A DNA stretch of 62,546 bases, counting the filler, from Basidiobolus ranarum (taxonomy: Eukaryota): NCBI GenBank assembly GCA_040143965.1. It is 14 parts of 14 records of this genome, joined end to end, with 100 filler letters (N's around TTAATTAATTAA, not from the genome) between each part and the next. Parts side by side here need not be neighbours in the genome. Positions count along the whole stretch, not along the records: positions 31,389 to 35,756 come from JASJQH010008858.1; 13 more parts are not named here. One strand, written 5' to 3'. Positions 909 to 62,546 of this stretch are shown piece by piece (within the stretch, counting starts at the first letter, position 1; the number at the start of each line of letters is the position of its first letter). Below the pieces are notes generated by a model that had not been told where the DNA came from, made no database searches, and worked only from the letters and a program-made list of their open reading frames with translations. The translations under genes were made by a program, and so were the position numbers.

Positions 909-1258
909 TGTTGTAATTAGATAAATAGCAACACATTATTCAGTAGCTAGCATATTCATCTTTTAAATGTTTAGCTACTAATTGTGTCATTCAAAATGTG
1001 TGTTTATTGCTCTAATTGATAGAAAATCAAATAGACCCCTTTTACCAATTTTCACTATTTTCTCAAAACTTCTCCTAATCACCTCAAATTTTCACCCATG
1101 CTTAACAGGCATGTTTGTCATGATCTAAGCCCATCTATTAGTCCTTTTTCATAGTAAACTATCAAGTGGACTTATCAAATTTTACAAGACTTAAGTGTCT
1201 ATTTCATGAATCCAAATCTTGCCCAAAACACTTGCAAATCCACTAAACACTTTTATCA
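909..1258 (+). repeat. 5' LTR of copia family A
   Basis: TGTT...ATCA termini, directly followed by PBS GGTTACGAGCCC (1259-1270) and gag. Homologous to ~13469-13762, ~14652-14995 and 25481-25832. Confidence 0.85.
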
Positions 1259-4200: not shown

Positions 4201-4391
4201 ATGACCTAGAAGCACTTAATCAGACAAAAAGCAGCTTATCAAACCAATTTCAGATGACTGATATGGGTGAATTAAGTTATTTTCTTGGAATCCAAATCAA
4301 GAGAGATAAACCCAATCAGAAAGTCATGCTGAATCAGTCTAGATACATCCTGGACATCCTAAAACGCTTCAACATGGAGAAGAGCACGCCT
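909..4391 (+). mobile_element. Ty1/copia retrotransposon family A, near full length, pseudogenised (gag-protease-integrase-RT), cut by the contig end
   Basis: Gag KFDGENFHLWKFKM, zinc knuckle CKYCKK*GH, protease WYIDS, integrase TPQQNGVAE, RT PIGCKWVYK...YKARLVAKGYSQ and LYVDDL. Integrase precedes RT. Many stops and frameshifts. Confidence 0.95.
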
Positions 4392-4491
4392 NNNNNNNNN
4401 NNNNNNNNNNNNNNNNNNNNNNNNNNNNNNNNNNNTTAATTAATTAANNNNNNNNNNNNNNNNNNNNNNNNNNNNNNNNNNNNNNNNNNNN
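4392..4491. other. Artificial 100-bp contig spacer (N44-TTAATTAATTAA-N44). Identical spacers start at 8881, 13369, 17855, 22338, 26817, 31289, 35757, 40225, 44692, 49158, 53623 and 58086
   Basis: Identical N-flanked six-frame stop linker. The segments between spacers never increase in length (4391, 4389, 4388, 4386, 4383, 4379, 4372, 4368, 4368, 4367, 4366, 4365, 4363, 4361 bp). Confidence 0.99.
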
Positions 4492-5332: not shown

Positions 5333-7565
5333 ATGCCATCTAGCACTGAGAAACGTATTGCCTCTGTCAAAGCACATCTCTCACATTCAGTTTCCCCATC
5401 CCCCAGGTAATATTTCTCTTCTACTCTGTATTTGCCATTAATCTAACGTACTTTATAGCCCTACCGAAAGTCTAGCCGCCGAGAGAGCCAATCCCTCGTT
5501 CCCCGTTCGTGAATTGACTTATTTTGTAGATGGCGGTCAAGAGATCACAAAGGTATTTCTTCATTCCCATATAGCCAGACTTGAAGTCAGCACTGATAGA
5601 TTTTGATTGGTTGGAAATTAGCTGAATGAGAAGTTCATGTTTGAATTGGAGAGAACTGCTGTATGGAAAATGGATGATATTCACAACCTACCTTTACCAG
5701 CGGTGAGAGAAAGAGCTCTAAAGAAGATAAAGAGTGTTCTTCATAATATGGCTAATGAGCCACCTGAACACTTCCAGAGAAGAGTTGTATTCATGGGCTT
5801 AGTGGACCCTGGCGTTTACACAAGACTCAATGTCCACGTGAATTTATTCTATAGTACATTATCGGGCCAAGCCACCCCAGCTCAACTGAACTATTGGACG
5901 AAACGAGGCGCAAGAACAATGAACGGTGTGACTGGTTGCTTCAGTATGACTGAGCTTGGCCATGGTTCTAATGTAGCTGCTCTTGAAACTACGGCTACAT
6001 TTGATGAAACTACTGATGAGTTCGTCATTCACACCCCTACCATCACCGCTACGAAGTGGTGGATTGGCGGTGCTGCCCATACAGCCACTCATACTACGGC
6101 ATATGCTCAGATGATCGTGAAGGGTCAGAATTATGGGGTCAAGGTTTTTGTTGTCCCTCTTCGTGATCCCAATACCTTCGACCTACTACCTGGAGTGAAT
6201 ATCGGCGATATCGGTAAGAAGATGGGCCGTGATGGGATTGATAATGGGTGGATTCAATTTACCAACGTTCGTATTCCTCGTCAAAATATGTTGATGAAAT
6301 TCACGCAAGTCACTCGTACAGGCGAAGTGGTTTCACCTCCTCTTGCCCAGCTCGCTTATGGTGCACTTATTGGTGGTAGAGTTCTCATGATTCGTGATAG
6401 CAGTAACTTTGCCAAGAAGGCTCTCACAATCGCTCTCAGATATGCAGCTGTCCGACGCCAATTCTCTGCCAATCCTACCGAGCCTGAAACCAAAGTGTTA
6501 GATTACGTAATTCATCAAAATCGGTTATTGCCGTTACTTGCTCAAGCATATGCAGTCAATTTCACAAGTATGGAAGTAAGCAAGCTATACCGCAATTTAC
6601 TGGATAAAATGCAGAACGCTCGTCCTGGTGATGACATGTCAGAAAACATCCTCATACTCAAAGAAACTCATGCTACCACTGCTGGTCTCAAAGCATTTTG
6701 CACTTGGAATTGTCTGAAAACGATTGAACAATGTCGTCAAGCCTGTGGTGGACATGGGTATTCAGCATACACGGGCTTAGCATCTATGTACCAAGATTTT
6801 GCAGTACAATGTACTTGGGAAGGAGATAATACTATTTTGACACTTCAGACTGGCCGCTCTTTAATTAATTACTATCAAGAGGCTAAGAGCGGTGGAAACA
6901 TCCCGGCAGGCGTTGGCTATCTCAAGAATGTCGAACAGCTGAGTGCACTTCGCTGCCAGGGTGATGATATTGCATCTATCACAGCATTTGATACTATCAT
7001 TGAAGCTTGGGGCGTTGTAGCAGCAAATGCAGTTAGAACGGCGGCAGATATATTCGATGCTTCTATATCACAGGGAGCTTCTAAAGAAGCGGCTTTAGAA
7101 AGTTGTGCTGTAGAAAGACTGCATGCAGCAAGAATGCATTGCTATGGTTACATTTTCAAGAAGTTTACCGAATCTATTCTTGAGGCACCACAGAGTGTGA
7201 CTGTGATACTAAACAAACTTTGTTTACTCTACGGTTTATACAATATCCAAGAGAATGCTGGTGAATTTATTGGTTCACAGTATTTCTCTACGAATCAAAT
7301 GTCTATTATTCGTCAGCAAGTAACTGAGCTCTGCTCTGCCATTCGCAAAGATGCGATTCCACTGGTGGACGCTTTTAACTTGTCTGACTTTGTCATTAAT
7401 TCCCCTTTGGGAAGGTACGATGGAAACGTATATGAGTCATACTTTAACGTGGTGAAATCCAATAACCCTCAACAGCCAGTCCCATATTTTGAGTCAACTA
7501 TTCGTCCCATTCTCAATGCGAATTACTCCACACAAGAGATTCCCGATCTAGAAATAGATCAATAG
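5333..7565 (+). CDS. POX1: Peroxisomal acyl-CoA oxidase. Exons 5333-5406, 5459-5552, 5622-7565
   Basis: Motifs TELGHGSN, KWWIGG, GDIGKKMG, CGGHGY and CTWEGDN (catalytic Glu). Two GT-AG introns extend the ORF in frame to MPSSTEKRIASVKAHL. TATA-like box near 5248. Confidence 0.95.
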
Positions 7566-8280: not shown

Positions 8281-9538
8281 ATTATGATCTCTACTTAGAA
8301 TAAACTTGAAAGAAAATAAAATTGATTTGATCTTGATCAGATCTGGCATCTGGGCCAAAATCTGGTCAGAGGACTATCATAACGTCATTCCCATATATTT
8401 TGCCAGAGTTAATGGTGCCCAAACATAAGGTATGCATCATTTAATATTATAAAATTTTATCAAAAACTCTTTTTTCATCTGCCATTTTGAAGGGTATAGA
8501 GCTTTATGATTTCTACTAAATATTGTGCATGCCCTTATACATGTATTTTAGCTTTTTATTTCAGCCATATTGAGAAGTAAAAAATATTGGTATCTCTTTA
8601 TGTTTGATCTCTGTACATGCATAAACCTGACTAATCAGGGTCACCCACAACAGCAATATGTATTGATAATAGACTAAAGGCAAAAAAATTATTATGCAAA
8701 AATCTATTTACTATCATCATCTTTCTCCTGTTTACACAGTTTTCATTCTGAATTCTGCCTCATTCTTACAATGCAATTTGGTCTTAAACATTCATTTTTT
8801 CAGTGTACTTGTATATATTGTGTACCAACACACCAAGTTATATAACTTGCACTAGCCCTTTTAAATCTATAAAAGTATCTNNNNNNNNNNNNNNNNNNNN
8901 NNNNNNNNNNNNNNNNNNNNNNNNTTAATTAATTAANNNNNNNNNNNNNNNNNNNNNNNNNNNNNNNNNNNNNNNNNNNNGCTGCATCTATCAATGGTGA
9001 TGAATGCCTCTGTATACTCTACTTTATTTTCATCAAAGAAAAGAAAAACCTCTCCAATCCTTGGTTTTTTGATTTCCAGCCTCCTTGTTACGTGCGAATT
9101 TGTGATCAAGGCAACTCAGTTTTATGAAACAAATATGCAGAGAAAGCAGGCCTTGGAGTCAAATCACTAGCAACACTTGGATATATTTTTCCTCGCAGTC
9201 GCTTTTGGTCAGTCTATACAATAGTTGTCAATAATAAATGCCATTACACTCTATAGATACCTTAATTGCCCTGTAACTTTAACAAAATCCAATTATTTGT
9301 AGTTCCAACCATCCAGAGTTGACGGATTTGAACTGGCATATCTATTTAAGGTTACCAATAGTGCCGCAATTCCAAGTTATGCCAAACAACCACACATCGC
9401 CCAATCACAATCAATGATTCCCAATTAGACATAAACTCCCCCAGCCAGAAACTTCCACAGCGCTCAATCCATCAGGATGAAGATCCTTTAAAGACTGACA
9501 GTACGACCACTCAGCCAACTCAGAAGACCCCTACTGCT

Positions 9539-10908: not shown

Positions 10909-11191
10909 TGTTGAAATTAGCATTGTCTAAACACCTATATAGTCATATATAGCTTATATTTCACTAAGATATTACCATTATTCTCATGAGGAATTTACTT
11001 AGTTCTCAGATATATAGATTTTTCAAGGAAGCCCCAAACTTTGCACACATATTCTTGGGACCTTCCTTAACACATTCTACACGTTAGTTTGTTTACATCT
11101 TGACAAAACTATAAATGTCAACTGAATACTCAATAAATCAATAAGTGAGAACCACCAAACCACTTCCAACAGGCTCCCAAATACTTTAACA
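10909..11191 (+). repeat. Solo LTR of copia family B with 5-bp TSD GTTAC
   Basis: TGTTGAAATTAGC...TACTTTAACA, with GTTAC at 10904-10908 and 11192-11196. Homologous to 58683-59030, which is attached to a PBS and gag. Confidence 0.9.
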
Positions 11192-12938: not shown

Positions 12939-13468
12939 ATTCGACCTGTTCGTAGAGGAAAGCTCAGCAAGCTACGGCTATGGAGCTACTCCAATGGTAT
13001 ATCGTGCGTTTTCGTACTCTTGAATAAAAGTCAACAAATCTAACTCAACTTCACAAGCAATGAGATGAAATTAGTGAAGCCTAAACGAGTAATCGTGGAT
13101 GTGAAGGATTGTTTGGCTTTAAATAACTCAATTGTCCATGATCTTTAAGGGGAGAATTCGTAGCCCTATTTTTGAAGCCACATGTGTTCTGTAATTGCAG
13201 AATTTCGCAACACGCTCAGCATAATCTATAAATAACAGATCCGTCAATGTCTCAGTTGATATTCAAGTAATCGGTCACTTGCTCGACTTCATCTCAGTCT
13301 CAACCCCACTTTTCTCAACCAAATTTGACACGACGCTTTGATCATTATCTCTCATATGGGCGACTCGTNNNNNNNNNNNNNNNNNNNNNNNNNNNNNNNN
13401 NNNNNNNNNNNNTTAATTAATTAANNNNNNNNNNNNNNNNNNNNNNNNNNNNNNNNNNNNNNNNNNNN

Positions 13469-24049: not shown

Positions 24050-25832
24050 TGGCCTAGTAATCTAATATCATGGTGTAGTATAAGCAAGACATATTCAACT
24101 CATGGAACAGTCAGTGTATTTGCAATTCAAATTCTTGCCCAAAACACTTAATGACTGCTTAAACACTGTTGTCATACTTCCCATGAACATATTACCTCCT
24201 GGACAACCACTAACAACTTGTTCAATGCATGTGTGGCTACTTTATGTGAAGTCTTGCACTTCATTGTGCCCTACTTCTGATGAAGAGAACTGGTCTTCTT
24301 GATTTGCCACAGTTTTGTGTAAGATTCATTATTTGTCAAGACTTAGAAAATGATTTCTTTTGCTCTAGGTCAATTATTTGGTTGGTGCTTTTGCATGGCA
24401 AGTCAGCTTAGACTGTTGAGGTTTAGTATCAACACTGTAATATAGAATGATTGAACATGCTTTGGCTATGTTTAGCAGATAGTGTGCCTATAATATGATG
24501 CCCTTATCAGCGGCATCTAGTGCATAGTCATCTCCTGAGTAGACTTTCCTTTTCTGGATAGGTTTTAAGCTGGAAAACAGGTCTGTCTTGTTTCACATAT
24601 GTTGGGAAGCTCCTGAATCAATGTAACACATTTCTGAGCCTACCTTTGTTATCACTAATAGGGCAAACATAAATAGATGCCCCCTATCCGTGCTTTCTTG
24701 ACTTGCTTGTTCTGATTTTAGCTTTTTGGCAAGAATCCTTTTTCTGCAATCAGTAAATAAAAGGCCTGGTTTCTTGCAATACTAGCAGAAAATTGATTTC
24801 CTATCATAGGTGCCATTTTGAAGCCTGTTGAATGTTTTACAGCTCCTCAAAATGCCTGACCTGCAATATTTTGCTGAGAATTAGATCTACTTAATTCCCT
24901 GTTCAAAACGCTGGCACCAACATCTTCCATTGTTAATGGCTCTGTTATTGATTCTAGGGCAATTATGAGGTTCCCAAACCTGTCTGGCAGGCTCCCAAGT
25001 AGTGTCATTACTAAGTCATCTTCATTTAGAGGTGCCCCAATGTATAAGAGCTGATCTGCCAGTGTTTGTACAGTATTTATGATTAAGCATTGAATCATCA
25101 GAGTTTTTGTGAATGAAGAGCAAATTTTGGCCTAAGATATAGCCTAGTAGCCAGACATTTTGTCACAAATGGTCCCTCAAGTGCTTCCCAAGCAGTTTGG
25201 AGGATCTTAGAAGAATGTATGTATCTCAATGGAGAGTTTCTGAGATGCTGACAAAGTGTAGTGTGCTTTTATCAGCATTTGCTAAGGGCATGGAGACCTT
25301 GAGGTGAACCCTTTGGCTTTATGTCTGCTCCTGTAACAAGTCCCCAATGTTCTTTGTCTTCTATACAACTTGTAACTTGCCCTTCTAAAGTCCACTCCTT
25401 CAAACTTCTCTGTGGATACACAAACATTGGTAATAGTACTGGTAGACATTCCTTTAAGAACTTGCTTGGGGCTCATAACCAGATAAAAGTGTTTAGGAGA
25501 CTAAGAAGTGTTTTGCACAAGATTTGAATTGGTGAATTAGATGCTAAAGTTATATCAAATTTAATTTGTCCCATTCATGAGTTACTATGAAATAGGACTA
25601 TTTGACATGTTTATATCTTCACAAACATGCTTGTTGAGTTTGGGTGAAAATATAAGGTGATTTGGGGAGGTTTTGAGAAAATAGTGAAAATTGGTGAAAG
25701 TGATCTAATTGATATATATATCAATTAGAGCAATAAATAAACATTTTTAAGTGGCAGAATTGAGCACCAAACAGTCAGAATATGAGTTAACTAACTACAA
25801 AATAATGAGTTGCTATTTACCTCAATTTAACA
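24050..25832 (-). mobile_element. Copia family A 5' part (LTR 25832-25481, PBS 25480-25469, gag, protease, start of integrase), degenerate
   Basis: PBS GGTTATGAGCCC and gag DDLVMTLLGSLPDRFGNLIIALES; homologous to 909-2800. Confidence 0.9.
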
Positions 25833-25839
25833 TAATTTG

Positions 25840-26549
25840 CAAATCAAATCTTGTGCAATACATTTCCAAATCCCCCAAAACACTTTTATCAGTTTATGAG
25901 CCCCCAGCAAGCTCTTAAAGGAATGTTTACCAGTACTATTATCAATGATTTTGCATTCACGGAGAAGTTTGATGGCAAACACTTTCATCTTTGGAAGTTC
26001 AAGATGCTAACGGCTCCAGAAGACAAGAACCTTTGAAGATATGTTACTGGAGAAGAAATACTGCTAAAGGGACCACCAAAAGCTGTCCTGCCCTTCTACA
26101 AGAAGCAGATGAAAGCTCGCTTTACACTCCTTTAATATCTTGGACACTTTTAATTGAGGCATATACACTGCACCATAGGTGTCCAAATTGCTTAGGAAGC
26201 ACTTGATGAACTTTATGAGACTAGAAGTCTGGCTGATAGGCTATATTTCAGGAAAAAATAGCTCTCAATTCAGATGTATTCTGATAATTCTATGGCTAAT
26301 CATATAAATCAGCCAAACACTATAGTAGATTAGTTCTCATCCATTGGAACACCTCTGGATGAAGATACATTAGTCATGACCCTACTCAGGAGCATGCCAG
26401 ACAGGCTTGGGAACCTCATAATTTCCCCAATTACAAGATCCAAGCCACCAACAATTAATTGTGTGCATGCTAAGCTTTTGAATAAGGAATTAAGGAGATC
26501 TAATTATCAGCAAAATCATGAAAATCAGGCATTTTTTGAGGCAGAAAAA
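25840..26549 (+). mobile_element. Copia family A (3' end of LTR, decayed PBS, gag), back-to-back with the previous copy
   Basis: CACTTTTATCA-GTTTATGAGCCC followed by EKFDGKHFHLWKFKM. Confidence 0.85.
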
Positions 26550-26816
26550 TGTTGAATAAAGAAATTACTTAGGGAGAAATATTGGTCTGGCCAGGATTTG
26601 AACCTGTTACCTGCTTCACTCTAGCAAGTTGCTCTAACCACTGAGCTACCAGTCCTTTTATGCTATGCCTATATTGCTAGGGAACCTTAACCTAGTATGT
26701 CAATGTATGGTACTTTGGCATTTCAGCTATACAAGCAACTGATTGGCCTTAGACTTTGTGTTCAGATACAGTCACCATACTCCATATTTTCCTCTTTGGG
26801 AATTACTGCTTGTATC
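26550..26816 (-). mobile_element. tRNA-containing LTR (copy 1), inserted in copia-A gag and cut by the contig end
   Basis: Reverse complement aligns with 33552-33810 and ends ...TTCAACA. Confidence 0.85.
26583..26655 (-). tRNA. tRNA-like sequence (pseudo-tRNA, nominal anticodon AGA) inside the LTR
   Basis: GGACTGGTAGCTCAGTGGTTAGAGC...GGTTCAAATCCTGGCCAGACCA. A and B boxes intact; anticodon stem disrupted. Confidence 0.75.
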
Positions 26817-31288: not shown

Positions 31289-31442
31289 NNNNNNNNNNNN
31301 NNNNNNNNNNNNNNNNNNNNNNNNNNNNNNNNTTAATTAATTAANNNNNNNNNNNNNNNNNNNNNNNNNNNNNNNNNNNNNNNNNNNNAGAATTAAGATT
31401 TAAGTTAGGATTAAGATATATGAATATTTAGTTGAGTGGGAG

Positions 31443-31819
31443 TGTTGAAGTTTATTGTCTTTATCATATTTGTTATCTCTATCTTTATACACCTAACTAC
31501 TTCATATATCACATATAAGTTAGTTAACATTACTTAGCCAACAGCACTTAGCTGAAAATTGGAGCATATATTATATATATATGTGAATAATGTGAGAATT
31601 AGCAATTCTATAATGGAAATTTCAAACTTGCCCAAATTGCCCCAAAGATAGCTCATTTTACTCCCACAGATTTTCTGAACACAACCCCAGAGTTAGTTTT
31701 CTGTATTTCCACCAACAAGTACAAATGCTTTATTTCTGGACAATAAACAATTATCTCACAAAACTATTCACAACTCCACTTTTCTAAAGTTCCTCCAAAC
31801 AGCCCATATTTTCCCAATA
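31443..31819 (+). repeat. LTR family C (3' LTR, preceded by PPT TTGAGTGGGAG)
   Basis: TGTTGAAG...CCCAATA, with a copia-type polypurine tract immediately 5'. Homologous to 42800-43176 and 45650-46026. Confidence 0.85.
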
Positions 31820-32079
31820 CAAATTAGTGTTCAAGTGGTAATTGTGTAAAATTTGAGTTACATTTTTTGCACATGTGTTGATCCATAGTTCTCAGAGATT
31901 GTAGCCAATCATGCGCAACTATTTTGCAAGATCTTGAAATTTCACTCCCAAAACTGAAAAAATTGATTAAAATCAAATCTAACTTGACAATTTTATGACA
32001 GTAAGTAAACAGTCAATCCCAAATGGACTAAAATTGTGACAGTTTTCTTACAATAACAATACTCAAATTTCTATTAGGG
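31820..32079 (+). mobile_element. Right terminus of transposon D
   Basis: Ends ...ACTCAAATTTCTATTAGGG; homologous to the terminal arms at 16947 and 46064. Confidence 0.75.
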
Positions 32080-33529
32080 CAAACAACCATTTGGACATGA
32101 AGATAGTTTAGTTACTGAAGGATTATAAGTCATACAATTGACAAGTGTTTTCTACTTGCACCAGGTGTGTGGCAAGCAATACTCTAACAAAAATAGAATT
32201 AGTTTGATTTGGATTGGATCCACCCTTCTGAATTGCAAAACTGTTAGCAAACCATCACAATATTGGTGGCTTGCATTCTGCAATGGATTTTGATGGTGAG
32301 ATGGTGGCTTCTTGACAGTATTTTGATAGTATTCTAACATGTTAAAATATTGATCCTCATATATGGCATGCATTAAATGATTTCCAGCAATATTTGCAAA
32401 AATCTAATTTACAAATGGCAAATTACAGGGTTTACTGCTGTAGTAATTTGAATTAACATTCATGTCTTTATTCAGATATTTTAGGCTTTGTATTCCAGCC
32501 ATAATGAGAATCAAAAAATACAACATTCTTGTTGTGTTTAGTCTCTATACATACACACACCTAACTGATCAGACATAACTCAACAACATCAATATGCTTT
32601 ACCAGCAAACTAATGGTGAAAAAGTTGCTAATTGTCTGAATTTATGAATAGCACTGCCACTTGGCAAATAGCTGACTCTTGTTACCATTCACAATCAGAA
32701 AAAGCTCTTGGATTTTGGCACATTTCCATCAAGAATTCAGCCAAATATCCCTGACTTGCAGTCAGCAAATGTCCTGCCCCAAGTAGATGAGTCATTGCTT
32801 GAATAGATTACCCTATGACTAAAACTAAAATACTGCATATCTTGATCTATCTTGCCAAGAAGTCTGTCTTGCAGCTTTCCTAAAATACTGTCAGATGATC
32901 ACACAAACAAATAAGCCCAAATTAAAGAGGTACTTACTCTGTGTCCATGGATTGGGCTTTGTTGCTGTTGTTGTGCTCAAACAATGTGAAAACCTGTGAG
33001 CACATTGAAAAGAGCCCTTTGTTTGAAGGTTAATATACTATGGAGTCTCCTTTACCCATTGCATTCCATCCATTGCTGATTTTGCTGATATATTGTTAAT
33101 TATACTAGCATATGGTAATACCAACAATTGCACAGGGAGCATCATTTCACTACAGGTGCACTCCATTGGGAACTCCCAGAATATATAGCCAGGCCTATGA
33201 TATCAAAGCATTGTGAGAGATGCAGCAAGAAATGTACTGAATGCTGGCATAGATTCAGTGTTTATTCTTTAAATCTTTAATAAAGTTTTTCGTATCCAAT
33301 TATAAAATCTTTCCATTGTTGCTCTATCTGCCTGAGATCTGCCAATGTGAGTTGATGTTATAAAAATATATTAACTATATCCACAAACAACTCCCAACAT
33401 TGCCAATACTTAGCAGGCAGGAATTGTTTCAAAATTCCACTTGAATATATACAAATCCAATACTTACAATCTTTGCATTAGAAAAAACACCTAGATGAGT
33501 GGAAATTGATAGGAATCCTGGTAAAATAT

Positions 33530-33810
33530 TGTCAAAAGTCTGGTGACTTGTGTTACAAGCAGTAATTCCAAAGGAAGAAAATAAGGAGTATGGTGACTGC
33601 ATCTGACCACAAAGTCTAAGGCCAATCAGTTGCTTGTACAACTGAAATGCCAAAGTAACATACATTGAAAGACTAGGTTAAGGTTCCCTAGCAATATAGG
33701 CATAGCATACAAGGACTGGTAGCTCAGTGGTTAGAGCACCTAGCTAGAGTGAAGGAGGTCTCAGGTTCAAATCCTGGCCAGACCAATATTTATCCTAAAT
33801 AATTTCAACA
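33530..33810 (+). mobile_element. Complete tRNA-containing solo LTR (281 bp) with 5-bp TSD AATAT
   Basis: TG...CA termini, with AATAT at 33525-33529 and 33811-33815. Removing it restores the host transposase frame (KLPLYFTRIP). Confidence 0.9.
33713..33785 (+). tRNA. tRNA-like sequence (pseudo-tRNA, nominal anticodon AGA, short variable loop) inside the LTR
   Basis: 73-nt cloverleaf: acceptor stem 6/7 pairs, D stem GCTC/GAGC, T stem TCAGG/CCTGG with TTCAAAT loop, anticodon stem only 3/5 pairs. Confidence 0.8.
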
Positions 33811-35332
33811 AATATAATGGTAACTTGATGATTGCAAGTATTTTCCCATTTGATTCATACTTTGGTCCTATTACAAATGGCTCATTCTTATTCAATTTTC
33901 CACTATATAGCTGAATAAGTAGTATTGAAATGCTGTTGAATAGTAAGTGCATAGTGCCTAATGGGAAGCTTTGGCTCCAGCTGATCCTCTTTGGCAATAT
34001 AACCTTATGACTAATACCAAGTTTGGTGTTAGTCTGACTATTTAGTGAATTGCTAACAGTTGGCATGTTGAAATGTGACCGGGCTATTGATGGTAAAACT
34101 ATGGCATTTAGTGCTGTATTTGGATAGTAGTAATGCATATGCCTGATGGAGTACACTCCATTGATTTGACAAAATCTACAGCAAGATAGTGCATTGGGGC
34201 TACAAAAAACCCTAAGTTTAATGATGGTAGGAGTGTCACCAACACTTACAATGCTTTTAGCTTTAATATAGTATTCACCCATCTGAACCCCATTTGATAA
34301 CCATGCAAATTCCACAATCAAAGGCTCCAAGAAGCTTTCTATAAATACTGGTGATCTAGGTCCAGATATGATGGAAAGTATCAAAATATTATGACTCTTA
34401 TACCTTTCAGAAGGATGAAGATTTAAGTTAATTAGAGTTATTGGCTAGCAAGCCTTGCCAATTGCATATTTGTTTAGTGAGAAACCATCCAGAGCCAATG
34501 CAATGCATGATCATATGTGTTCTCAACAAAACCTTGACTTTTCAGATTCTGGTAGTTACATCCATCAAGTATATATGTAATACCATCAGCTTTATGATGA
34601 GTATCTTGGTACTGGATCAATGATCTATATTTAGGTGATTTCATGAAAACTATAAGACAGTTAATGAATTGCATGTAAGCTAAATATGAATGATAGTTAC
34701 CTAATTGAGTGATTGCCAATTGCAAGGAATCAGTAAATGATTTCAGGTTTTTCAGATCACTAGTGAAAGCCAAAAACCATTTGAACATGCAGGTAGTTTA
34801 ATTACTGAAGGATTATAAGTCATACACTTGACAAGTGTTTTCCACTTGTACCAGGTCTGTGGCAAGCAACAGTTGCCAATCAACTGTGGTAAAAGTGTAA
34901 GAAAACCAATAAACACCTGGTTGCTAAGATTAGATTGAACTCTCCACTCCTCAATAATCAAAGCTGCTTCCTTTACTGCAGGTGTTATAAGTGGACTAAA
35001 ACTTGCCAATAAAAAAGAGTCCATAACAAAACTGTTGTCTTCTTCTTCAACTTCTGATATACTACTGTTATTACTGGAATAACCAAGGTCAACATCTAGC
35101 AGCCTGTCCTCACAGTTGTCTGGACTTACTGGTTTGATAAAAGTTGATTTTCTACCTACATCATTCTGATCATGTAACTGTGGTAACTCCACAGTGTCTT
35201 GACTTTTGGCAGTGTTACCAAAATGTTTAGGCAAAGCACAGCCAATGCACTCAGTGGGCAAAACAAAGTTGATTTAGTGCACATATAACTGTTGATATTT
35301 ACCAGGCTTAATGCAGCTGGTGGCTTTGTACA

Positions 35333-35756
35333 TCCTAACAAAAACAAAATGAATTTGATCTGGATTGGATGCACCCTCCAAAATAGCAAAACCATTGTAG
35401 AACTGTCACAATATTGTTGGCTTGCATTCTGCCAGGGATTTTAATGGTGTGAAGGTGGTTTCTTGATGGTATCTTAATGGTATTCATACATGTTAAAATA
35501 TTGATCCTCAAATTTGGCATGGTTATTCATAATCCAGCAATTTTTGCAAAAATATAATTTTCAAATGACAAATTAATGGGTTTACTGCTGTAGGAACTTG
35601 AATTAATGTGCATGCCTCTATTTAGATATTTTAGGCTTTGAATTTCAGCCATAATGAGAATCAAAAAATACAAGAATCTTGTTGTGTTTAGTCTCTACAT
35701 ATGTACATATTTGACTGATTAGACATAACTCAACAACATCAATATGCTTTACCAGC
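35333..35756 (+). mobile_element. Second left terminus of transposon D, nested in the D copy above
   Basis: TCCTAACAAAAACAAAATGAATTTGATCTGGATTGGAT..., colinear with 32182-32607 and 59553-59976. Confidence 0.8.
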
Positions 35757-36544: not shown

Positions 36545-36801
36545 ATTGAGATGCTGGTAGTTAGAACTACAAATAAGTTGAAAATTTATAAGCTGAACTG
36601 TATTCTTTTAATATTTACTGACTTGATTCAAACTTGGTATGTTCAAAATTCCAGATATTAGAAACTTGATTTAAGGCTATTGTTCATTAATCATTCCATA
36701 ATGTTTTATCTATTGGGTATTATTAATGCAATAAAACCAATGCAAATTAAATGATTTATACCAGTTATGATTAGAGTGAATTTGGTACTCAGTCAAAATA
36801 T

Positions 36802-37448
36802 TGCTGAAATTATCATTGCCTAAACAACTATATAGTCATATATAGCTTAGTATCAAGTTATCTCATATTTTACTAAGATATTACCCATTATTCTCAATTG
36901 GGTTTTACCTAGAATTGTTAAAGTATTTGGGAGCATGTTGGAAGTGGTTTGGAGAATTAGAGAAATTGGTAGTTTTCACTTGTTGAATTATTGAGTATTC
37001 AGTTGACATTTATAGTTTTGTCAAGATGTAAACAAGCTAACATGTAGAATGTGTTAAGGAAGGTCCCAGGAACACGTGTGCCAAGTTTGGGGCTTCTAGC
37101 AAAAGTTTGAAAAGTCTATATATCTGAGAACTTCTAGGTTGGTAAAAATATTCCAAGTAAATTCCTCATGAGAATAATGGGCGATATCTGTTAAAGTATT
37201 TGAGAGCCTGTTGGAAGTGGTTTGGAGAATTAGAGGAATTGGTGGTAACCCTAAATGAGATAACTAAGTACTAAGCTATATATGACTATATAGGTGCTTA
37301 GGCAAAGCTAATTTCAACAAGAATATTTTTACCAACTTAGAAGCTCTCAGATATATAGATTTTTCAAACTTGTGCTAGAGGCCCCAAATTTTGCATATAT
37401 TTACCTGGGACCTTCCTTAACACATTCTACCCACTAGTTTGTTTACAC
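36802..37448. repeat. Nested LTR-B cluster: a + strand LTR interrupted by a - strand composite LTR-B (36916-37319, TSD AGAAT)
   Basis: AGAAT at 36911-36915 and 37320-37324. A further LTR-B end restarts at 37189 inside the insert. Confidence 0.8.
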
Positions 37449-38911: not shown

Positions 38912-39304
38912 TTATCCACACTGGCCAACGTAGTTTACGGTAAGTTGACCGTGTTTAACTTCATTATCCCCCGGGAAACCAAGAGGGATGCTGCCACAAA
39001 CGTTACAGCCATGATTTTGCAATTGATGAAGCAATGAACAAGCCTTGGACGCAGTAATAGAACTGCCCGTATTTTGGGTAAAAGCAGCAATTCCCCCAAG
39101 TATATGACAGTTAGTTGCAATTCTGACTCCAGGACCATAGGAGTTACCGCCCGGCAGGTTGCATACAGTATTGACTAATTGATTCAAGCTGTTTCCCGTA
39201 GTTCCACATTGACTACTTCCACGGCAGTTAATACCAAGAGCGTCCACTTGAGACAGCAGACCAAACGCAGTAAAGATGGAGCAAGTATTGATGAAAATTC
39301 GCAT
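38912..39304 (-). CDS. KP4 killer toxin-like secreted protein, 130 aa, intronless
   Basis: 22-aa signal peptide ending VDA, then LGINCRGSSQCG...HGC.VCGS.P...GQLTVNYV. TATAAAAG about 45 bp upstream of the ATG at 39304. Confidence 0.93.
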   Translation of the reverse strand: MRIFINTCSIFTAFGLLSQVDALGINCRGSSQCGTTGNSLNQLVNTVCNLPGGNSYGPGVRIATNCHILGGIAAFTQNTGSSITASKACSLLHQLQNHGCNVCGSIPLGFPGDNEVKHGQLTVNYVGQCG

Positions 39305-40324
39305 ATTGGAATGGAATGTTGATGGCGTTGTATTGTGTCGAGTTGTATCTTTTATATTGCACCGTGCTTGGTAATGAATGCTATTAAACCTATTCTGGGT
39401 CCGGCTAGACATGTACAAGAGTCATTCTTTAATATATACCATTAATGTACTTTCAGTCGGAGCACTTGACATATTAAGTATTAGATAGGTATTTCAAAGG
39501 CCACCCTATGGACTTTTAAAGATCAATAAGCCCACACTTCACTCCTCACCAATTGAAAAGTATGGTGAGCGTACCACTATCAAGAATAAATAAAAATTCA
39601 GCTTTAAATTTGTATGACGTACGTTCGCTCTGTTGTTCCCCTCAACGAATGAAATAGACATCAACTAGTATATATCACGTTTACTCTTGACTCCAGGTGA
39701 AGTTGGAAACCAACACATATCGGTGTTACTTCATGTTGTCCAGAACCCCATTTAGCACTCTTGGATCTAAAGCAATACATGTGAAATACAACCTCCACCA
39801 ACCACATTGAGATCTTATTAAGCAACAATGTAAGTAGACTGAGCTGATCTGTATAGATACGGGTAAGCAGAGCCTCGGTTACAAAAGCAATGGGGAATAA
39901 CGGCAAATTATTGGGCAGGTGAACATAATTTGAATTTACTTGGAACCATGTTCGTGTGATTTCAAATATTTGGCATATACCGGATTCATAGCTTCTATTA
40001 GATGATCAATTTGGGAAAGATCTTTAGGAAATAAATGAACGTGATCATACGTTCACTATGATTATCATTTACTCTATATACAACTAGGATTAGAACTAGG
40101 ATACGTGCAAGTCTAGGAAACAATACTCTTTATCTCGGGTAGGCCTAGTAAGGAATAGGAAACAATACTCTTTATTTAGAGGCAACAGTCACCCTTAACA
40201 AGTAATTTCTTAAAGTATTTTCAGNNNNNNNNNNNNNNNNNNNNNNNNNNNNNNNNNNNNNNNNNNNNTTAATTAATTAANNNNNNNNNNNNNNNNNNNN
40301 NNNNNNNNNNNNNNNNNNNNNNNN

Positions 40325-44433: not shown

Positions 44434-44691
44434 TGTTGAAATTAGCATTGCCTAAACACCTATATAGTTATATATAGCTTAGTACTTAGTTATCTTATAA
44501 TTCACTAAGATATTATCAATTATTCTCAAGTGGAATTTACTTAGAATATTTTTACCAACTTAGAAGTTCTCAGATATATGGATTTTTCAAACTTGTGCTA
44601 GAAGCCCCAAACTTTGCACACATGTTCCTGGGACCTTCCTTAACATATTCTACACGTTAGTTTGTTTACATCTTGACAAAACTATAAATGT
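44434..44691 (+). repeat. LTR family B, cut by the contig end
   Basis: Starts TGTTGAAATTAGCATTGCCTAAACACC. Confidence 0.88.
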
Positions 44692-46079: not shown

Positions 46080-46565
46080 GTTTCACTAAGATCTTGTCCA
46101 TCAATGTCAATTGGAATTTACTTAGAAGATTTTGCCAACTCATAAGTTGTCAGCTGTATAAATCTTGCAAACTTGTGTTTGAAGCCCCAAGCTTTGTGCA
46201 CATGCTCCTGAGACCTACCAGCTAATTTCTGCTGAAATTAGCATTGCCCAAGCACATATATTGTCATAAATAGCTTAGTACTCGTTTATCTTATATTTCA
46301 GCAACATGTTACTCGTCATTGTTAATTAGAATTTGCTTAGGATATTTTTACCAACTTAGAAGTTCTCAGATTTATCGATCTTTAAAAATTGTGCTAGAAG
46401 CCACATACTTCATACATGTGTTCCTGTGACTTTCCTAAGCACATTTTGCATGCTAGTTTGTTTACACCTTGACAAAACTAAGTAGCAACTTCCAACTCTA
46501 TAAATCAATAAGTAAAAACCACAAATTTCACTAATTCTTCAAACACTTACAACAAGCTCCCAGAT
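46080..46565 (+). repeat. Two adjacent or nested degenerate LTR-B copies
   Basis: Partial copy at ~46080-46220; a second copy starts TGCTGAAATTAGCATTG at ~46230. Confidence 0.7.
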
Positions 46566-46599
46566 AATCGTTATGTTAGAGTAAGCATTGATGCTGCTG

Positions 46600-55248: not shown

Positions 55249-57174
55249 TCAGGATAGCTCGCTTAATGTTCTCCAAAAAACCATTCTCGGATCTCTGATG
55301 TCATCCTCCATGGCCTCTTTCCCCATTATACCACCAGATTCGAAAACCAAGGATGATCCAGTCCCCTCACTCAAAGGTTCCCAAGATTCATTCGGCACTC
55401 CGTGGCTTGCAAAATTCACCCAGTATTCAGTGACCTTCTCCGATAGCTCTTTCTCAGCTTCAGTAAGATGACTAATATGATAGAAGACAAACGGAATCTC
55501 CACTCCGTGGTGAATGCCAAGGTTTAGAGAGGCGGTTCTTTGCAGAGGTGCGTTGAAGCGATAGAAGTAAATATTGCGCAAAGAGTCTTTATGAGCTAAA
55601 TCACGGGCGTCATCACGAATGGGACGTGTAAATATCTTATCACCAAATATTCTGGCACCTGCAAGAGCTGTTGAACCACCAAATGAATCCAAGGGGTAGA
55701 GATCTTCAATTTTCTGGACAATCCCTGAAGGAAAAGTAGCCTCGAGGTTGGCCCTATACGTTTCTTCTTTACCGAATCCCGCCAAAAAGATTGTTCCTTC
55801 ATCAGTGTTTTCCCCAATAATAATATCCTTCACGAATGGATCTATATTTTCGGGCTTTTGTAATAGAAGTCTTGGATTTTCTTTGATTGTAACTCCATCG
55901 ATAGTTCCAACCCACAATATACGCATTTCTGTGGCTAGTTTATCTATGACTTCAATAAGTATTTCACTGGACACCTTGCGTAATTGAGACACCTTGTCGT
56001 CTCCTGTTATATCCAAGTGTTTGCAGATTTTATCAAAAATTATTTGTTGTTTCTCTATGGTAGCGGCTGGTAGAGTGTCCAAGCCACCGGACTGTAAGAT
56101 AGCTCGATTGAATAGTCCTCTCGAGATAACAAGGTGATGGGCCAGACTAACCGAGCCTGCTGATTCACCAAATCCACAGATACGACTATCATCACCGCCA
56201 AAAGAAGAGATGTTTTCTTTAACCTAACATCAATAACCAAAAGTATCGGTCAATAAATATAGGAATCCAAATGCTTGCAAAACATTTCCTTAATTCCCCT
56301 TTCACCTACTCAAAGTAACTTACCCACTCAAAGGCAAACCGTTGGTCCAGGAATCCATAGTTTCCTGCAGTCCCATCGCCAGAGTCCTGCGCAAGTTCCT
56401 TACTAGCTAGGAAGCCAAACAAGTTTAACCGATAGTTAATGACTACTACAAGGACCGGGTGTCTTTTAACCAGATTAGTAGCATCTATAATGTTGAGAGA
56501 AGCATTTAATATAAGGTTTACGTAGTTGGGTCTCAAGTTTTGTTATAATTTGAACATAATAGTTTTACCGTATAGTGCAAGAGAGTTGGAACCATCCTTC
56601 AAAGAGCCGCCATGTATCCATACCTTCAGGAAGAAAGTGGCTATCAATATATATTCCCGCTCTGAAAAAAGAATAACAAACGAACCATCACTGGCCAGCC
56701 ATCCTTGGGCTTGGTCTCATAAGGGGGTGTATAAATGTTTAAATTCAAACAATTATCTTCATCCTGACCTGGAACATAGTCTGGTATACCAGGAAAGGTT
56801 GGTATAAGAGATTTTGGTTGAGGGCAGCTTGGCCTTAGAAAATTAGACATGGTGTAAATAAGTAACAATTGTGACAAAGTGAATTTTGTACTCCATATAA
56901 AACTTACCCATGTTGAGTTGCATCGTAAACTTTCTCGGAATTAGGCTGTACTTTCTGTGGTTTTTTCCATCTCAGCTCACCAACTGGTGCCTTTTATCCA
57001 AATGATGTTTAAGAAATAAGAAATTTTCTACCTGCAGGCTATTAAAGATAAGCGATAACACACCTTTGCGTAAGGAATATTGTAAAAAGCCTGGTGAGTT
57101 CCATATGCGTATCCTTGATACTTTCCTTGTGGTAGTTGAACGTCTACTGGGCTTGGGTTATTTTGAGAGGTCAT
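55249..57174 (-). CDS. Type-B carboxylesterase, multi-exon, no evident signal peptide
   Basis: NIPYAK|APVGELRWK, EDNCLNLNIY, VWIHGG, NYRL..FGF, GNYGFLDQ, GESAG, NTDEG and HHGVEI (Ser-Glu-His triad). ATG at 57174. Confidence 0.93.
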
Positions 57175-58185: not shown

Positions 58186-59030
58186 ATTCAGGACTGTAAC
58201 TATAATATCTTGATCAGTAGTAGGTACTCCAATGCATTCAATTTCATCCACTAAAATAGTGACTCTATTAATTAGTGATATAATGTCTTCTCCTGGCTTC
58301 ATCTTTAAGTTAAATAATTGTCTTCTTAGAAACATCTTGTTGGCAGCAGAACTTGTTTGGTAGGTGTCTTCCAAGGCTTTCCATACCTTCTTGCCAGTTT
58401 TAGCTCTTGAACAATGAATTAGCAATTTGCTTTAACATTATCACAAATTGTGTTAAAGACACTTTGTTCTTTTTTAACCTGGTGTAAAACTTCAGTTTCA
58501 GATAGTTTTTCATTGTTTTTTTCTCCTACAACAGTGTCCCAAAGTCCTTTATCTTGTAGCAGCATTTTCATTTTAATTTGCCAAACTTGACAATTGGTTC
58601 CATCCAATTTTTGAGAAGAGGGAAAAGTTCCATAGATTTGAGAAGTAGACATTACAAAGATGGCAAGCTTGGGCTTATAACCTTTTAAAGTATTTGGGAG
58701 CCTATTGGAAGTGGTTTGGAGAATTAGAAGAATTGGTGGTTTTCACTGATTGCTTTATTGAGTGGAAATTTGACATATATATTTTTGTCAAAATTTAAAC
58801 AGACTAAGATGTAGAGTGTGTTAAGAAAGATCCCAGGAGCATGTGTGCAAAGTTTGGAACTTCTAGCACAAGTTTGAAAAATCTATATATATGAGAACTT
58901 CTAAGTTGGTAAAAGTATTCTGAGTAAATTCCAACTGAGAATAATGGATAGTATCTTAGTAAATTATAAGATAACTAAGTACTAAGCTATACATGACTAT
59001 ATAGGTATTTAGGCAATGCTAACTTCAACA
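58186..59030 (-). mobile_element. Copia family B 5' end: LTR 59030-58683, PBS 58682-58671, frameshifted gag
   Basis: PBS GGTTATAAGCCC; gag KLDGTNCQVWQIKMKMLLQDKGLW and VWKALEDTY...FLRRQLFNLKM. Confidence 0.9.
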
Positions 59031-59189: not shown

Positions 59190-61850
59190 GCAAATTGGTC
59201 TAAATTTGATCCAAACAGCATGTTATGCATATTTCTGCATTGTTGGACTTAAACTAAGGCCTACAGACTTTGTGATATCAAAACTTCAAAGTAACCAAGT
59301 ACATGGATGTTGTGTTCTATGAAAATGATAAATCCTTGCCTAGAATGACTGCAGATGCAAACAAAAATCAATTTTCGCCTGATCCAATCATACCAATTCA
59401 AACAAACCGCAACAATCAAGAAAATAGCATTTCTGTTGACCCCTCAACTATGATTCCCCCTACTGAAGTGCCCAATGCAATGCCAGAAGTTGTAGTATCC
59501 TTATCCCAAACCAGAATATAATATCAGGTCAGAAATAGCTCTGATTACCGTACCCTAACAAAAATAGAATCAATTTGATCCGGATCAGATCCACCCTCCA
59601 AAAGAGCAAAACTGTCAGAGAACCATCACAATATTGGTGGCTTGCATTCTGCCAGGGATATTGATGGTGTGATGGTGGTTTCTTGATGGTATTTTGATGG
59701 TATTCATACATGTTAAAAGATTGATCCTCAAATTTGGCATGCGTTATTCAATATCCGGCAATATTTGCAAAAAAATAATTTTTGAATGGCAAATTACTGG
59801 GTTTACAGCTGTAGGAATTCAAATTAATATGCATGCCTTTATTGAGATATTTTAGGCTTTGTATTCCAGCCATAATGAGAATCAAAAAATACAAGAATCT
59901 TGTTGTGTTTAGTCTCTACATATGCACATATTTGACTGATTAGACATAACTCAACAACATCAATATGCTTTACCAGCAAACTAATGGTGGAAAAGTTGCT
60001 AAACATCAGAAATTTTAAATAGCACTGACACTTGGCAAAGAGCTGACTCTTGTTACCATTCACAATGAGAATAAGCTCTTGGATTTTGGCAAATTTCCAT
60101 AAAGAATTCAGCCTATGTATCCCTGGCTTGCAGTCAACAAGTGTCCTGCCACAAGTAGATGTGTCATTGCTGGAATAGATTACCCCACGGCTAAAACAAT
60201 AATACTGCATATCTTGATCTATCTCACCAAGAAGTCTGTTTTGCAGCTTTCCTAAAAATACTGTCAGATTATCACACAAGCAAATTAGTCTGATTATAGA
60301 GGTACTTACTCTGTGTCCATGGATTGAGCTTTGTTGCTATTATTGTGCTCAAACAATGCAAAGACCCATGAGCACATTGAAAAGAGCCCTTTGTTGGCAG
60401 GTTAATATACTCTGGAGTCTGCTTAACCCATTGCATTACATCCATCACTGATTTTGCTGATACATAGCTAATCAGATTAGCATACAGTAGGGCCTATAAT
60501 CTCTAAGCTTTGTGAAATATGTAGCAGAGAATGTATTGAACACTGGCATAGATTCAGTCTATCTTCTTTAAACCTGTAATAAAGTTTTCATATCCAATTA
60601 CAAAATCTTTGCACAATTGCTGTATCTGCCTGAGATCTGCCAATGTGAGTTGATGCCGCAAAAATATATTAACAATATCAACAAACAACTCTCATTGTTG
60701 CCAATACTTATCAGGCAGAAATCTTTTCAAAATTCCACTTGAGATGGTTTTCCTACAATAACAATCCTCAAATTTCTGTTATGCTATATCAATGAGCTCC
60801 AATATTAGCCCTATGCCTGATCAGCTCAAATACATGAACCTCAGAATTTAAAAGAGGCCCTGAATGTCGCCTGTACAAAATTTTGGATATTTGCAATGGC
60901 TGATGAGTACCAGGCTTTGATTGATAATCAAAACTTGGATTTTAACAAACTTACCAGATTATAGAAAATCAGTTGGCTACCCATGGACATTTAAAGTTAA
61001 CACAATTCTGATCGCAATATAGAAAGATACAGGGCTAGACTAGTAACCAAAGCCTATTACCAAGTATCAGGAATAGATTATTCAAATACTTTAGCTCCTG
61101 CAGCAAGGTTTAATTCAATTAGCTTGATTTTAGCAATTTCAGCTAAATATCAGTTTTTAATACATCAAATCAAAATTAAAGCTGCTTTTTTGTATGGCAA
61201 GCTTGCTGAGAATATCTATATGGGCCCATCAGATAGATTTGCAAACACAGAAAGCCCTTAAAAAGCTTTCAGACTCTGGAAAACACTCTATGACTTAAAG
61301 CAATCTCCCAGAACTTAGAATAGCAAGATAGATGCTTTTTTCCCAACACTCATATTCCAAAAGAGTAATGCTGGCTATAGTGTCTACTTCAGGCCAGATG
61401 AGACAAACCCAGTTTTATTAGCCTTATATGTTGATGACTTTATTATAGGAATCAACAACTCAAAGACTTTGGAGAGAGCCAAATCCTACTTATCTGCCAA
61501 ATTCAGAATATAATATTGGGGAACTGACATACTGTCTTGGAATACAAATTAAGATAGAGAGCACTACCAGAGCAATAACTTTCAACCAGTCTAAGTGTAC
61601 TCTAGATATATGTATAAAGTTTAAAATGGAAAAATATAACTCAGTATCTATTGCAAAAATAACATATCTTAACTTGATCAAAAATGGATCAAGTCAAACA
61701 TTCATGGATTCAAATGAAAGCCAGAAATTTCTTTATCAATCTATGGTTGACAGTTTGCTATATATCATGGTGGGAACATGGCCAGATATTGCTTCTTCTG
61801 TTGGAGTTATGTGCCAATATCTTCAAAATTAAGGATCTGATCAAATCATA
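59190..61850 (+). mobile_element. Degenerate copia (end of integrase through RT), interrupted by transposon D
   Basis: DVVFYEN, IERYRARLVTK, LYVDDF and YQSMVDSLLY...PDIASSVG fragments. Confidence 0.85.
59553..60784 (+). mobile_element. Internally deleted transposon D with both ends (CCCTAACA...TGTTATGC) and an apparent TA TSD
   Basis: The left end and transposase 3' region are fused at ~60741 to the right terminus. TA at 59551-59552 and 60785-60786. Confidence 0.75.
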
Positions 61851-61853
61851 GCA

Positions 61854-62087
61854 TCCTATCAAATATAAATTTATTTGATCCAGATTGGATCTACTCCTCT
61901 GGATTGCAAAACCATCAGAAAACCATCACAATATAGGTGGCTTGCATTCTGCCAGGGATTTTGATGGTGAGATGGCAGCTTCTTGATGGTATTCACACAG
62001 GGTAAAATATTAATGCTTGTATTCGGCATGTATTATGTAATTTCCAACAATTTTTCAAAAAACTAATTTTCAAATGGCAAATTACTG
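61854..62087 (+). mobile_element. Further left terminus of transposon D
   Basis: Colinear with 59553-59798. Confidence 0.75.
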
Positions 62088-62089
62088 AG

Positions 62090-62546
62090 TTGATGGAAAG
62101 TCAATTTCCACTTCTTTCAAACTTCCTTGCCTTTCTTGCTGAACTGGAAGCCACATTTGGAAATGCAGATAAGAAAAGAACTTCAGCCACCAAGCTCTGT
62201 GCACTTAAACAAGGGTCAAAACCTGCTTCAACTTATGCTGCAGAATTCCGCCTTCTTGCCTGTGATCTCAATTGGGGAGAATCTGCCCTGCTCAACCAAT
62301 TCCAATATGGACTCCAAGAAAACATTAAGGATCTTTTACTCACTATAGCTGATCCAGTGACCTTGACTGATGCTATCCACCAGGCAGTTAAATGTGATAA
62401 CAGGTTATTTGAAAGACAACAACAAAGAAATATGGTTCCTTTCTTCTCTCCTTCATCATCGACTTTCAGACCCCCCTTCCATCAAACACAAAATACAGCT
62501 CAAGCTGATGACCCAATGCAAAATGATGGAACTTGCATCCAAAAGC
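62090..62546 (+). mobile_element. Ty3/gypsy gag fragment, open to the window end
   Basis: FLAELEATFG...KLCALKQGSKPASTYAAEFRLLA.DLNWGESAL..QFQYGLQENIKD...AVKCDNR...DDPMQ.D is a typical retrotransposon-gag pattern. Confidence 0.88.

Follow-up and report, generated by a model that had tools for sequence, protein, structure and literature searches.

The 281-bp unit at positions 33530-33810 of the Basidiobolus DNA analysed here is probably the solo LTR of a small non-autonomous TRIM of the Helenus type, carrying a tRNA-derived RNA polymerase III (Pol III) promoter within the LTR. The unit is a discrete mobile insertion, which is the firmest result of the analysis: it interrupts a transposase pseudogene, is bounded by a 5-bp target site duplication (TSD), and recurs with the same internal layout at a second, unrelated site. 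Since its architecture matches that of Helenus LTRs, the kind of element is already known, and the unit is an added member of a described kind rather than a new kind; that it forms a new family in this lineage, as suggested in the initial annotation, is plausible.

The analysed window

The window, that is, the whole stretch of 62,546 bases that was analysed, consists of 14 separate contigs of about 4.39 kb each, joined by 13 spacers of the form N44-TTAATTAATTAA-N44. These account for 26 runs of 44 N, paired around TTAATTAATTAA, with the spacers at 4392-4491, 8881-8980, 13369-13468 and onward. For piece 2, the protein collection gives the source of its product as a contig of 4,389 bases. Because the window is made of joined contigs, only 31389-35756 is real context of the 281-bp unit, and features found on different pieces are not genomic neighbours. 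Several contigs of the window have repeats in common, and G+C across the window is 32-41%. The coordinates of the features discussed below are collected in Table 1.

The window has long open reading frames free of interruptions that code for proteins of eukaryotic type, among them those of Copia gag/RT, Kp4, NicO, an acyl-CoA oxidase, a carboxylesterase, a UCH protease and part of a poly(A)-binding protein. The acyl-CoA oxidase ORF (5622-7565) has 81% and 74-75% identity to Basidiobolus meristosporus proteins and 74% identity to one B. ranarum protein, with the next genus at 60%. The Kp4-domain ORF, of 169 aa, lies at 38912-39421 on the minus strand (Pfam PF09044, E 5.9e-29); the killer protein of the Ustilago virus belongs to this fold family.

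Table 1. Positions of the 281-bp unit, its parts, its second copy, the interrupted host gene and the Copia families, counted along the window.
Feature	Position	Strand	Basis or remarks
Probable solo LTR, TGTCA...CAACA, Helenus-like	33530..33810	+	TSD; split host transposase; similarity to copy 2 lost at CA end
Part upstream of tRNA-like sequence, 183 bp (U3 by analogy)	33530..33712	+	GGCCAATCA at 33620-33628; AATATAGG at 33693-33700
tRNA-like sequence, 73 nt	33713..33785	+	ARAGORN, Rfam; AGA at anticodon position, short variable loop
Tail after tRNA-like part, 25 nt, T3 runs only	33786..33810	+	Ends TAATTTCAACA; U5 end by analogy
Left TSD copy AATAT	33525..33529	.	Includes host Tyr codon 33528-33526 on minus strand
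Right TSD copy AATAT	33811..33815	.	Includes duplicate Tyr codon 33814-33812
tnp2-type (Transposase_21) transposase pseudogene, upstream part	33812..34507	-	Pfam PF02992 (E 2.3e-05), homologues, tblastn
tnp2-type transposase pseudogene, downstream part	32936..33528	-	tblastn of P0122 residues 154-350
Second LTR copy, 92% identical	26550..26816	-	tRNA-like part 26583-26655; 5' 23 nt lost at contig end
Degenerate Copia element	909-4391	+	LTR R3 909-1258, PBS, gag, integrase SH3-like, RVT_2 ORFs
LTR family R2, about 350 bp, TGTTGAAATTAG...ACTTTAACA	58186-59030 (-), 10909-11191, 46230-46566, 44434-44691, 36801-37445

Insertion into a transposase pseudogene

The initial annotation had described a 281-bp TG...CA element with an exact 5-bp TSD, and this description holds: TG stands at 33530, CA at 33809-33810, and AATAT follows on either flank. 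The duplication is beyond chance, being a match at five of five positions at one fixed position pair (P about 0.0015 with the composition of the contig). The LTR has TGTCAAAAG at the end away from the tRNA-like part and ...TTTCAACA at the tRNA-side end; such ends, together with a TSD of 5 bp, indicate that an integrase like those of LTR retrotransposons was at work.

The surrounding gene gives an independent view of the same boundaries. The minus-strand ORF 33767-34444 is a fragment of a tnp2-type transposase, with a PF02992 match that lies under the curated cut-off (E 2.3e-05), and Transposase_21 is found in the homologues P0124, P0126 and P0128 at 79-95 bits. A search of this ORF against 1.84 billion representative proteins gave 436 matches at E <=0.001, including 62 at E <=1e-10, and 13 of the 15 best-ranked homologues were compared with the contig by tblastn. 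Six of these 13 (P0122, P0126, P0128, P0131, P0132 and P0135) match significantly on both sides of the unit, with the far side restarting at 33522-33528; of the remaining seven, some are short proteins that do not reach the junction, and the others match past it only weakly or at a greater distance. In the closest spanning homologue, P0122, residues 2-154 correspond to 34267-33812 and residues 154-265 to 33528-33193, with the frame shifted by one, and Tyr154 is matched twice, by the TAT codons 33814-33812 and 33528-33526. These codons are 286 nt apart (281 + 5), so that the transposase gene is continuous once the 281 bp and one 5-bp target copy are taken away.

The interrupted pseudogene is dead, as it has in-frame stops and a frameshift near 33193, and since the unit sits in a dead transposase, no effect of the insertion on a host gene is evident. 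One of the transposase homologues, P0123, is itself a B. ranarum protein. No empty site for copy 1 was found in the window at the DNA or the tblastx level, and the repeat 32180-33444 (= 59551-60742) stops 85 bp short of the insertion. That repeat, of at least 1.26 kb and with the C-terminal part of a tnp2-type transposase, occurs at 32180-33444, 35331-35756, 59551-60742 and 61852-62091; it recurs at 3.15-kb and 2.3-kb spacing inside two contigs, perhaps as tandem or perhaps as nested transposon copies.

The tRNA-like part

Near the 3' end of the unit, the initial annotation had placed a 73-nt cloverleaf with intact A and B boxes, a broken anticodon stem and an A3-A70 mismatch, and each of these features was recovered. 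ARAGORN calls a plus-strand tRNA with anticodon AGA at 33713-33785, where the Rfam family RF00005 reaches 51.8 bits (gathering score 29; E 3.1e-08). The A box TAGCTCAGTGG (33720-33730) and the B box GGTTCAAATCC (33764-33774) are intact, and the Rfam alignment contains the non-standard acceptor pair 3-70 and two non-standard pairs in the anticodon stem.

A working tRNA would have full cloverleaf pairing and an isotype that fits its anticodon, and 33713-33785 has neither. tRNA-Ser needs a long variable arm, and the AGA anticodon is accompanied in copy 1 by a variable loop of 5 nt. The RNA of this part folds no better than shuffled sequences (z -0.24), and its minimum-energy fold is not a cloverleaf. 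The tRNA-like part thus keeps its A and B boxes but is no credible working tRNA. A weak Rfam match to the Plastid-ycf2 5'UTR RNA on the minus strand (33713-33786, 31.4 bits; gathering score 65.7) is most likely noise from the tRNA-like fold.

The absence of runs of four or more T between the cloverleaf and the LTR end was also seen, and in fact no such run occurs on the plus strand of the whole 281 bp. This absence is not significant, with an estimated 0.8 runs or so expected in 281 nt at 24.6% T, and T4 depletion was for that reason dropped as a sign of Pol III read-through. By analogy, the 183 bp upstream of the tRNA-like part may be termed U3 and could have a promoter role.

A second copy at an unrelated site

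BLASTN of 33400-33950 against the window returns a single other copy, with 33554-33806 matching 26814-26561 at 92.1% identity over 254 nt. The tRNA-like part of copy 2 scores 44 bits in Rfam, and the A3-A70 mismatch is common to both copies. The flanks of the two copies are unrelated and their layout is alike, which makes the tRNA-like part integral to the repeat; with the same layout at two unrelated sites, it is neither a late insertion into one copy nor the product of a segmental duplication. A cloverleaf inserted separately into a minority of copies, an outcome that had been named as fatal to the initial reading, does not fit the copies in the window, two of two of which carry it. Copy 2 has the CA end (...TTCAACA at 26550), and its 5' end lies off the contig.

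This CA end is the exact point at which the repeat that hosts copy 2 leaves its two other copies, 26200-26549 corresponding to 1567-1913 and, inverted, to 25183-24849; this host repeat is itself Copia internal sequence. Copy 1 is thus bounded by the TSD on both sides, and copy 2 abuts host DNA on the tRNA side and the contig end on the other. The LTR family has made at least two independent insertions, and copy 1 was integrated as a block with a 5-bp duplication. The initial reading of the unit as an LTR retroelement with a Pol III promoter in its LTR stands as far as an LTR-type mobile unit with integral tRNA-like motifs is concerned; paired LTRs, a PBS, a PPT and an internal domain of this family were not seen in the window, which holds two copies.

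The 73-nt parts of the copies differ at five positions, all in the stretch that separates the A and B boxes; with 92% overall identity and only two copies, the intact boxes in both are not evidence of selection. Unlike that of copy 1, the tRNA-like part of copy 2 (26583-26655, minus strand) has a cloverleaf-like minimum-energy fold (-26.7 kcal/mol, z -2.48); in this copy 2 fold, a 7-bp 'anticodon' stem shifts the loop, so that the central triplet is AGU, not AGA. An apparent extra 5'-end copy at 57076-57100 (E 0.008) appears unrelated once its sequence is read. Exact-pattern scans found no further copies in metagenome contigs (two patterns), prokaryote-genome contigs or viral contigs, and these empty results say little, because the collections are mostly non-fungal. 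Translated LTR copies were not found among the spurious ORFs of the protein collection, in which no candidate of 45-144 aa shared query words.

Copia families in the window

The Copia elements of the window, which are candidate partners of the 281-bp unit, carry the PBS GGTTAYGAGCCC, a 5-bp TSD and LTR ends similar to those of the 281-bp unit. The R3 LTR runs TGTTGTAATTAG...CACTTTTATCA and is directly followed by the PBS GGTTACGAGCCC (1259-1270), past which lie ORFs, in different frames, for gag (DUF4219, Retrotran_gag_2), an integrase SH3-like domain and RVT_2. Two copies related to this element stand head to head in 24548-26549, one of them hosting copy 2. In the R2 family, the LTR at 59030-58683 (minus strand) ends ...ACTTTAAAA and is followed by the PBS GGTTATAAGCCC and an ORF read by eye as Copia gag; the R2 solo LTR at 10909-11191 has the TSD GTTAC, and at 36801-37445 R2 fragments of both orientations lie nested together. 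A PBS scan with GGTTATGAGCCC, allowing <=2 mismatches, gave 6 matches against 2.66 expected, a number reached by 9 of 100 shuffles, and is useful only because 4 of the 6 lie directly after LTR ends; scanning the window with CATGGTAGCG gave nothing useful.

The 281-bp LTR resembles R2 and R3 in its TG...CA ends, in its 5-bp TSD (known for the R2 solo LTR) and in the terminal motifs TGTTGAAATTA / ...TTT.A.CA. It differs from both in that the R2 and R3 LTRs are about 350 bp long, are devoid of a tRNA-like part and are followed by a PBS and gag/pol ORFs, and no overall similarity extends beyond the termini. When the 3' end of the 281-bp unit is reverse-complemented, it agrees with the R2 5' end TGTTGAAATTAG at 11 of 12 positions, the last 11 nt of the unit being those that match. 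A derivation of the 281-bp LTR from R2 by insertion of a tRNA was rejected, as global alignment in one relative orientation gives scores at shuffle level (z 0.06-1.77).

Alternative explanations

When the termini of the unit are compared with those of the Copia reference LTRs, some of whose boundaries are a few nt off, four of five reference 5' ends clearly favour the minus orientation (5.5-9.5 vs -0.5 to 2) and four of five 3' ends favour the plus orientation. The termini therefore do not orient the 281-bp LTR, and the tRNA-like part could be antisense to the RNA of the element. Since the orientation is not fixed in this way, the main rival is an ordinary Pol II-driven LTR, of a Copia element or a TRIM, with a passenger tRNA fragment or SINE that may be antisense and has no role in replication. 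Besides the 5'-end scores, such a reading can draw on the tRNA-side end, which on the minus strand reads TGTTGAAATTA, agrees with the R2 5' end as given above and resembles R3, and on the CCAAT-like and TATA-like motifs within the 183-bp part; insertion of a SINE into an LTR is, moreover, the origin that Kojima proposes for Helenus-type LTRs (PMC10886601). Yet the reference 3' ends point the other way and leave the termini uninformative, the one relative orientation that was aligned has no overall similarity to R2, and the layout of the unit, with the tRNA-like part 25 nt from the end, a T-rich stretch and ...ACA, fits the Helenus LTRs, which are all in the sense orientation in the available part of that paper. 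On balance, the passenger fragment is unlikely.

The other explanations fit the unit less well than a Helenus-type solo LTR does. A MITE, that is, a non-autonomous DNA transposon with a 5-bp TSD and TGT...ACA ends, into which a tRNA-derived segment came by chance, would also be short and non-coding with an exact 5-bp TSD, and by eye the extreme ends form imperfect inverted repeats at about 7 of the first 10 nt; but the inverted similarity stops by about 10-12 nt, the termini match those of LTRs in the same genome behind which a PBS and Copia gag lie, and the window showed no transposase partner with ends of this kind, so that a MITE is improbable. Although a tRNA-derived SINE, or another LINE-dependent retroposon, would explain why a short, dispersed repeat contains a tRNA-like Pol III promoter, the layout already contradicts it: in both copies the tRNA-like part starts 183 nt into the unit and stops 25 nt short of its 3' end, an A-rich or simple-repeat tail is absent on either strand, and the unit has TG...CA ends and an exact 5-bp TSD. 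The initial annotation was right in holding that this is not a SINE head, and we consider a SINE very improbable. The initial annotation had also named a functional tRNA gene within a segmental duplication as an outcome that would overturn its reading. Both Rfam and ARAGORN do call a tRNA, but the A-A acceptor mismatch in both copies, the non-standard anticodon-stem pairs and the combination of a Ser anticodon with a short variable loop speak against a working gene, and the similarity between the copies ends at the TG...CA unit, with unrelated flanks; a working, duplicated tRNA gene is hardly credible.

Proposed mechanism

If the unit is the solo LTR of a Helenus-type TRIM, the full element would, by analogy with Helenus and Cassandra, consist of an LTR, a PBS, a short non-coding core, a PPT and a second LTR. 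[quoted passage not shown] Following Cassandra and the proposal made for Helenus, Pol III would bind via the A and B boxes and start near G33713; R would then begin with the tRNA-like part, and R-U5 would be the last 98 nt of the LTR. As no T4 run follows the tRNA-like part, Pol III would not be stopped inside the LTR and could read through into the core and the 3' LTR. Pol III transcription with read-through may allow an escape from Pol II-level silencing.

A more specific proposal, put forward tentatively, is that the unit may belong to the first TRIMp3 lineage outside Dikarya, being a Pol III-driven and Copia-dependent miniature retrotransposon of an early-diverging fungus and having arisen independently of the Helenus elements of rusts and mushrooms. 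Its R would start at the tRNA-like part, and loss of the usual T-run would let Pol III read through the 5' LTR. A bolder variant, which takes up a by-eye likeness to Helenus-4_PGr, makes it a relative of those elements, and would imply great age or horizontal transfer.

Implications

If the Helenus-type reading is confirmed with full-length copies, the range of tRNA-promoter TRIMs, which now takes in rusts and a small number of mushrooms, would come to include a fungal lineage that diverged early, and their presence there would support a repeated acquisition of Pol III promoters by LTR elements. Such LTRs are called tRNA genes ('tRNA-Ser-AGA') by ARAGORN and Rfam, and they can be expected to swell the number of predicted tRNAs in Basidiobolus-like assemblies, as already happens in rust genomes.

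Comparison with known systems

SINEs carry their tRNA part as a head at the 5' end and finish in LINE-related or A-rich sequence at the 3' end. The tRNA-derived SINEs (SINE2) share with the 281-bp unit an A/B-box promoter and the character of a short dispersed repeat, and differ from it in that its tRNA-like part lies 183 nt inside a TG...CA unit with a fixed 5-bp TSD. What precedes the tRNA-like part here is 183 nt of conserved repeat, in both copies, and the tail is TAATTTCAACA.

Cassandra, a TRIM of plants with a 5S-derived promoter (Kalendar et al. 2008), differs from the fungal 281-bp LTR, the promoter of which is tRNA-derived; a threshold as lax as E 1 gave no 5S rRNA match anywhere in the window, and Rfam finds a tRNA alone. 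Pol III transcripts have been demonstrated for Cassandra, whereas for the 281-bp LTR they are a prediction.

The closest counterpart is Helenus. That tRNA-bearing TRIMs of this name have been reported, as the initial annotation stated, is borne out by Kojima 2024 (PMC10886601), which describes TRIMs with a tRNA-derived sequence in their LTRs, with the same LTR layout, under the names Helenus and 'TRIMp3', the latter a term that in the literature searched is used for these elements by Kojima alone. According to the available part of that paper, fungal Helenus is represented by 113 families in Pucciniales, with a few more in Agaricus, Coprinopsis and Amylostereum, and has 5-bp TSDs, frequent solo LTRs and mobilisation by Copia; the fungal LTRs measure 111-274 bp (Table S1), and the consensus LTRs start with TGT, carry the tRNA-like part within a few tens of nt of the 3' end, and continue with a T-rich stretch and ACA. 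[quoted passage not shown] Pol III promoter function has, per Kojima, not been validated even for Helenus (PMC10886601).

Several features set the 281-bp LTR apart from the Helenus families described there. Its host is Basidiobolus, whereas the range given by Kojima 2024 is Pucciniales and three Agaricomycetes; Basidiobolus, Zoopagomycota and Mucoromycota do not occur in the available part of the paper, the screen of which was seeded from Repbase and is not exhaustive (PMC10886601), and no earlier report of tRNA-bearing TRIMs in the Basidiobolus lineage was found in the literature searched. The unit is known here as an LTR alone, without an internal part, it is longer than the fungal LTRs in the available passages of Table S1, and only T3 follows its tRNA-like part, where many of the available rust consensus LTRs have TTTT. 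The sole sequence match to a described family, by reading and not by computed alignment, is the 11-nt end motif TAATTTCAACA, common with Helenus-2_PTrit, and an 18-nt stretch of the unit is absent from DataS1 of Kojima in the form available. In Helenus-4_PGr, the tail and the GACTGG acceptor arm are alike by eye only, a likeness that may be cherry-picking among many families.

In its architecture, by contrast, the unit agrees with Helenus. In two of two copies (51.8 and 44 bits), the LTR carries close to its 3' end a tRNA-derived sequence whose A and B boxes are conserved; a short T-rich tail follows this sequence, and the TGT...ACA ends (TGTCA...CAACA) come with a 5-bp TSD (AATAT/AATAT). The tRNA-like parts of Helenus are mostly non-functional and inflate tRNA predictions, including 'Ser-AGA' (PMC10886601), and the unit likewise gives a Ser-AGA prediction that is not a credible tRNA, as do Helenus-9_PSt, Helenus-2_UVF and Helenus-6_CroRib. 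Finally, the anticodon-loop iMet type of PBS is dominant in fungal Helenus and its Copia partners (PMC10886601), and Copia elements with a PBS of this type are present in the same genome as the 281-bp LTR.
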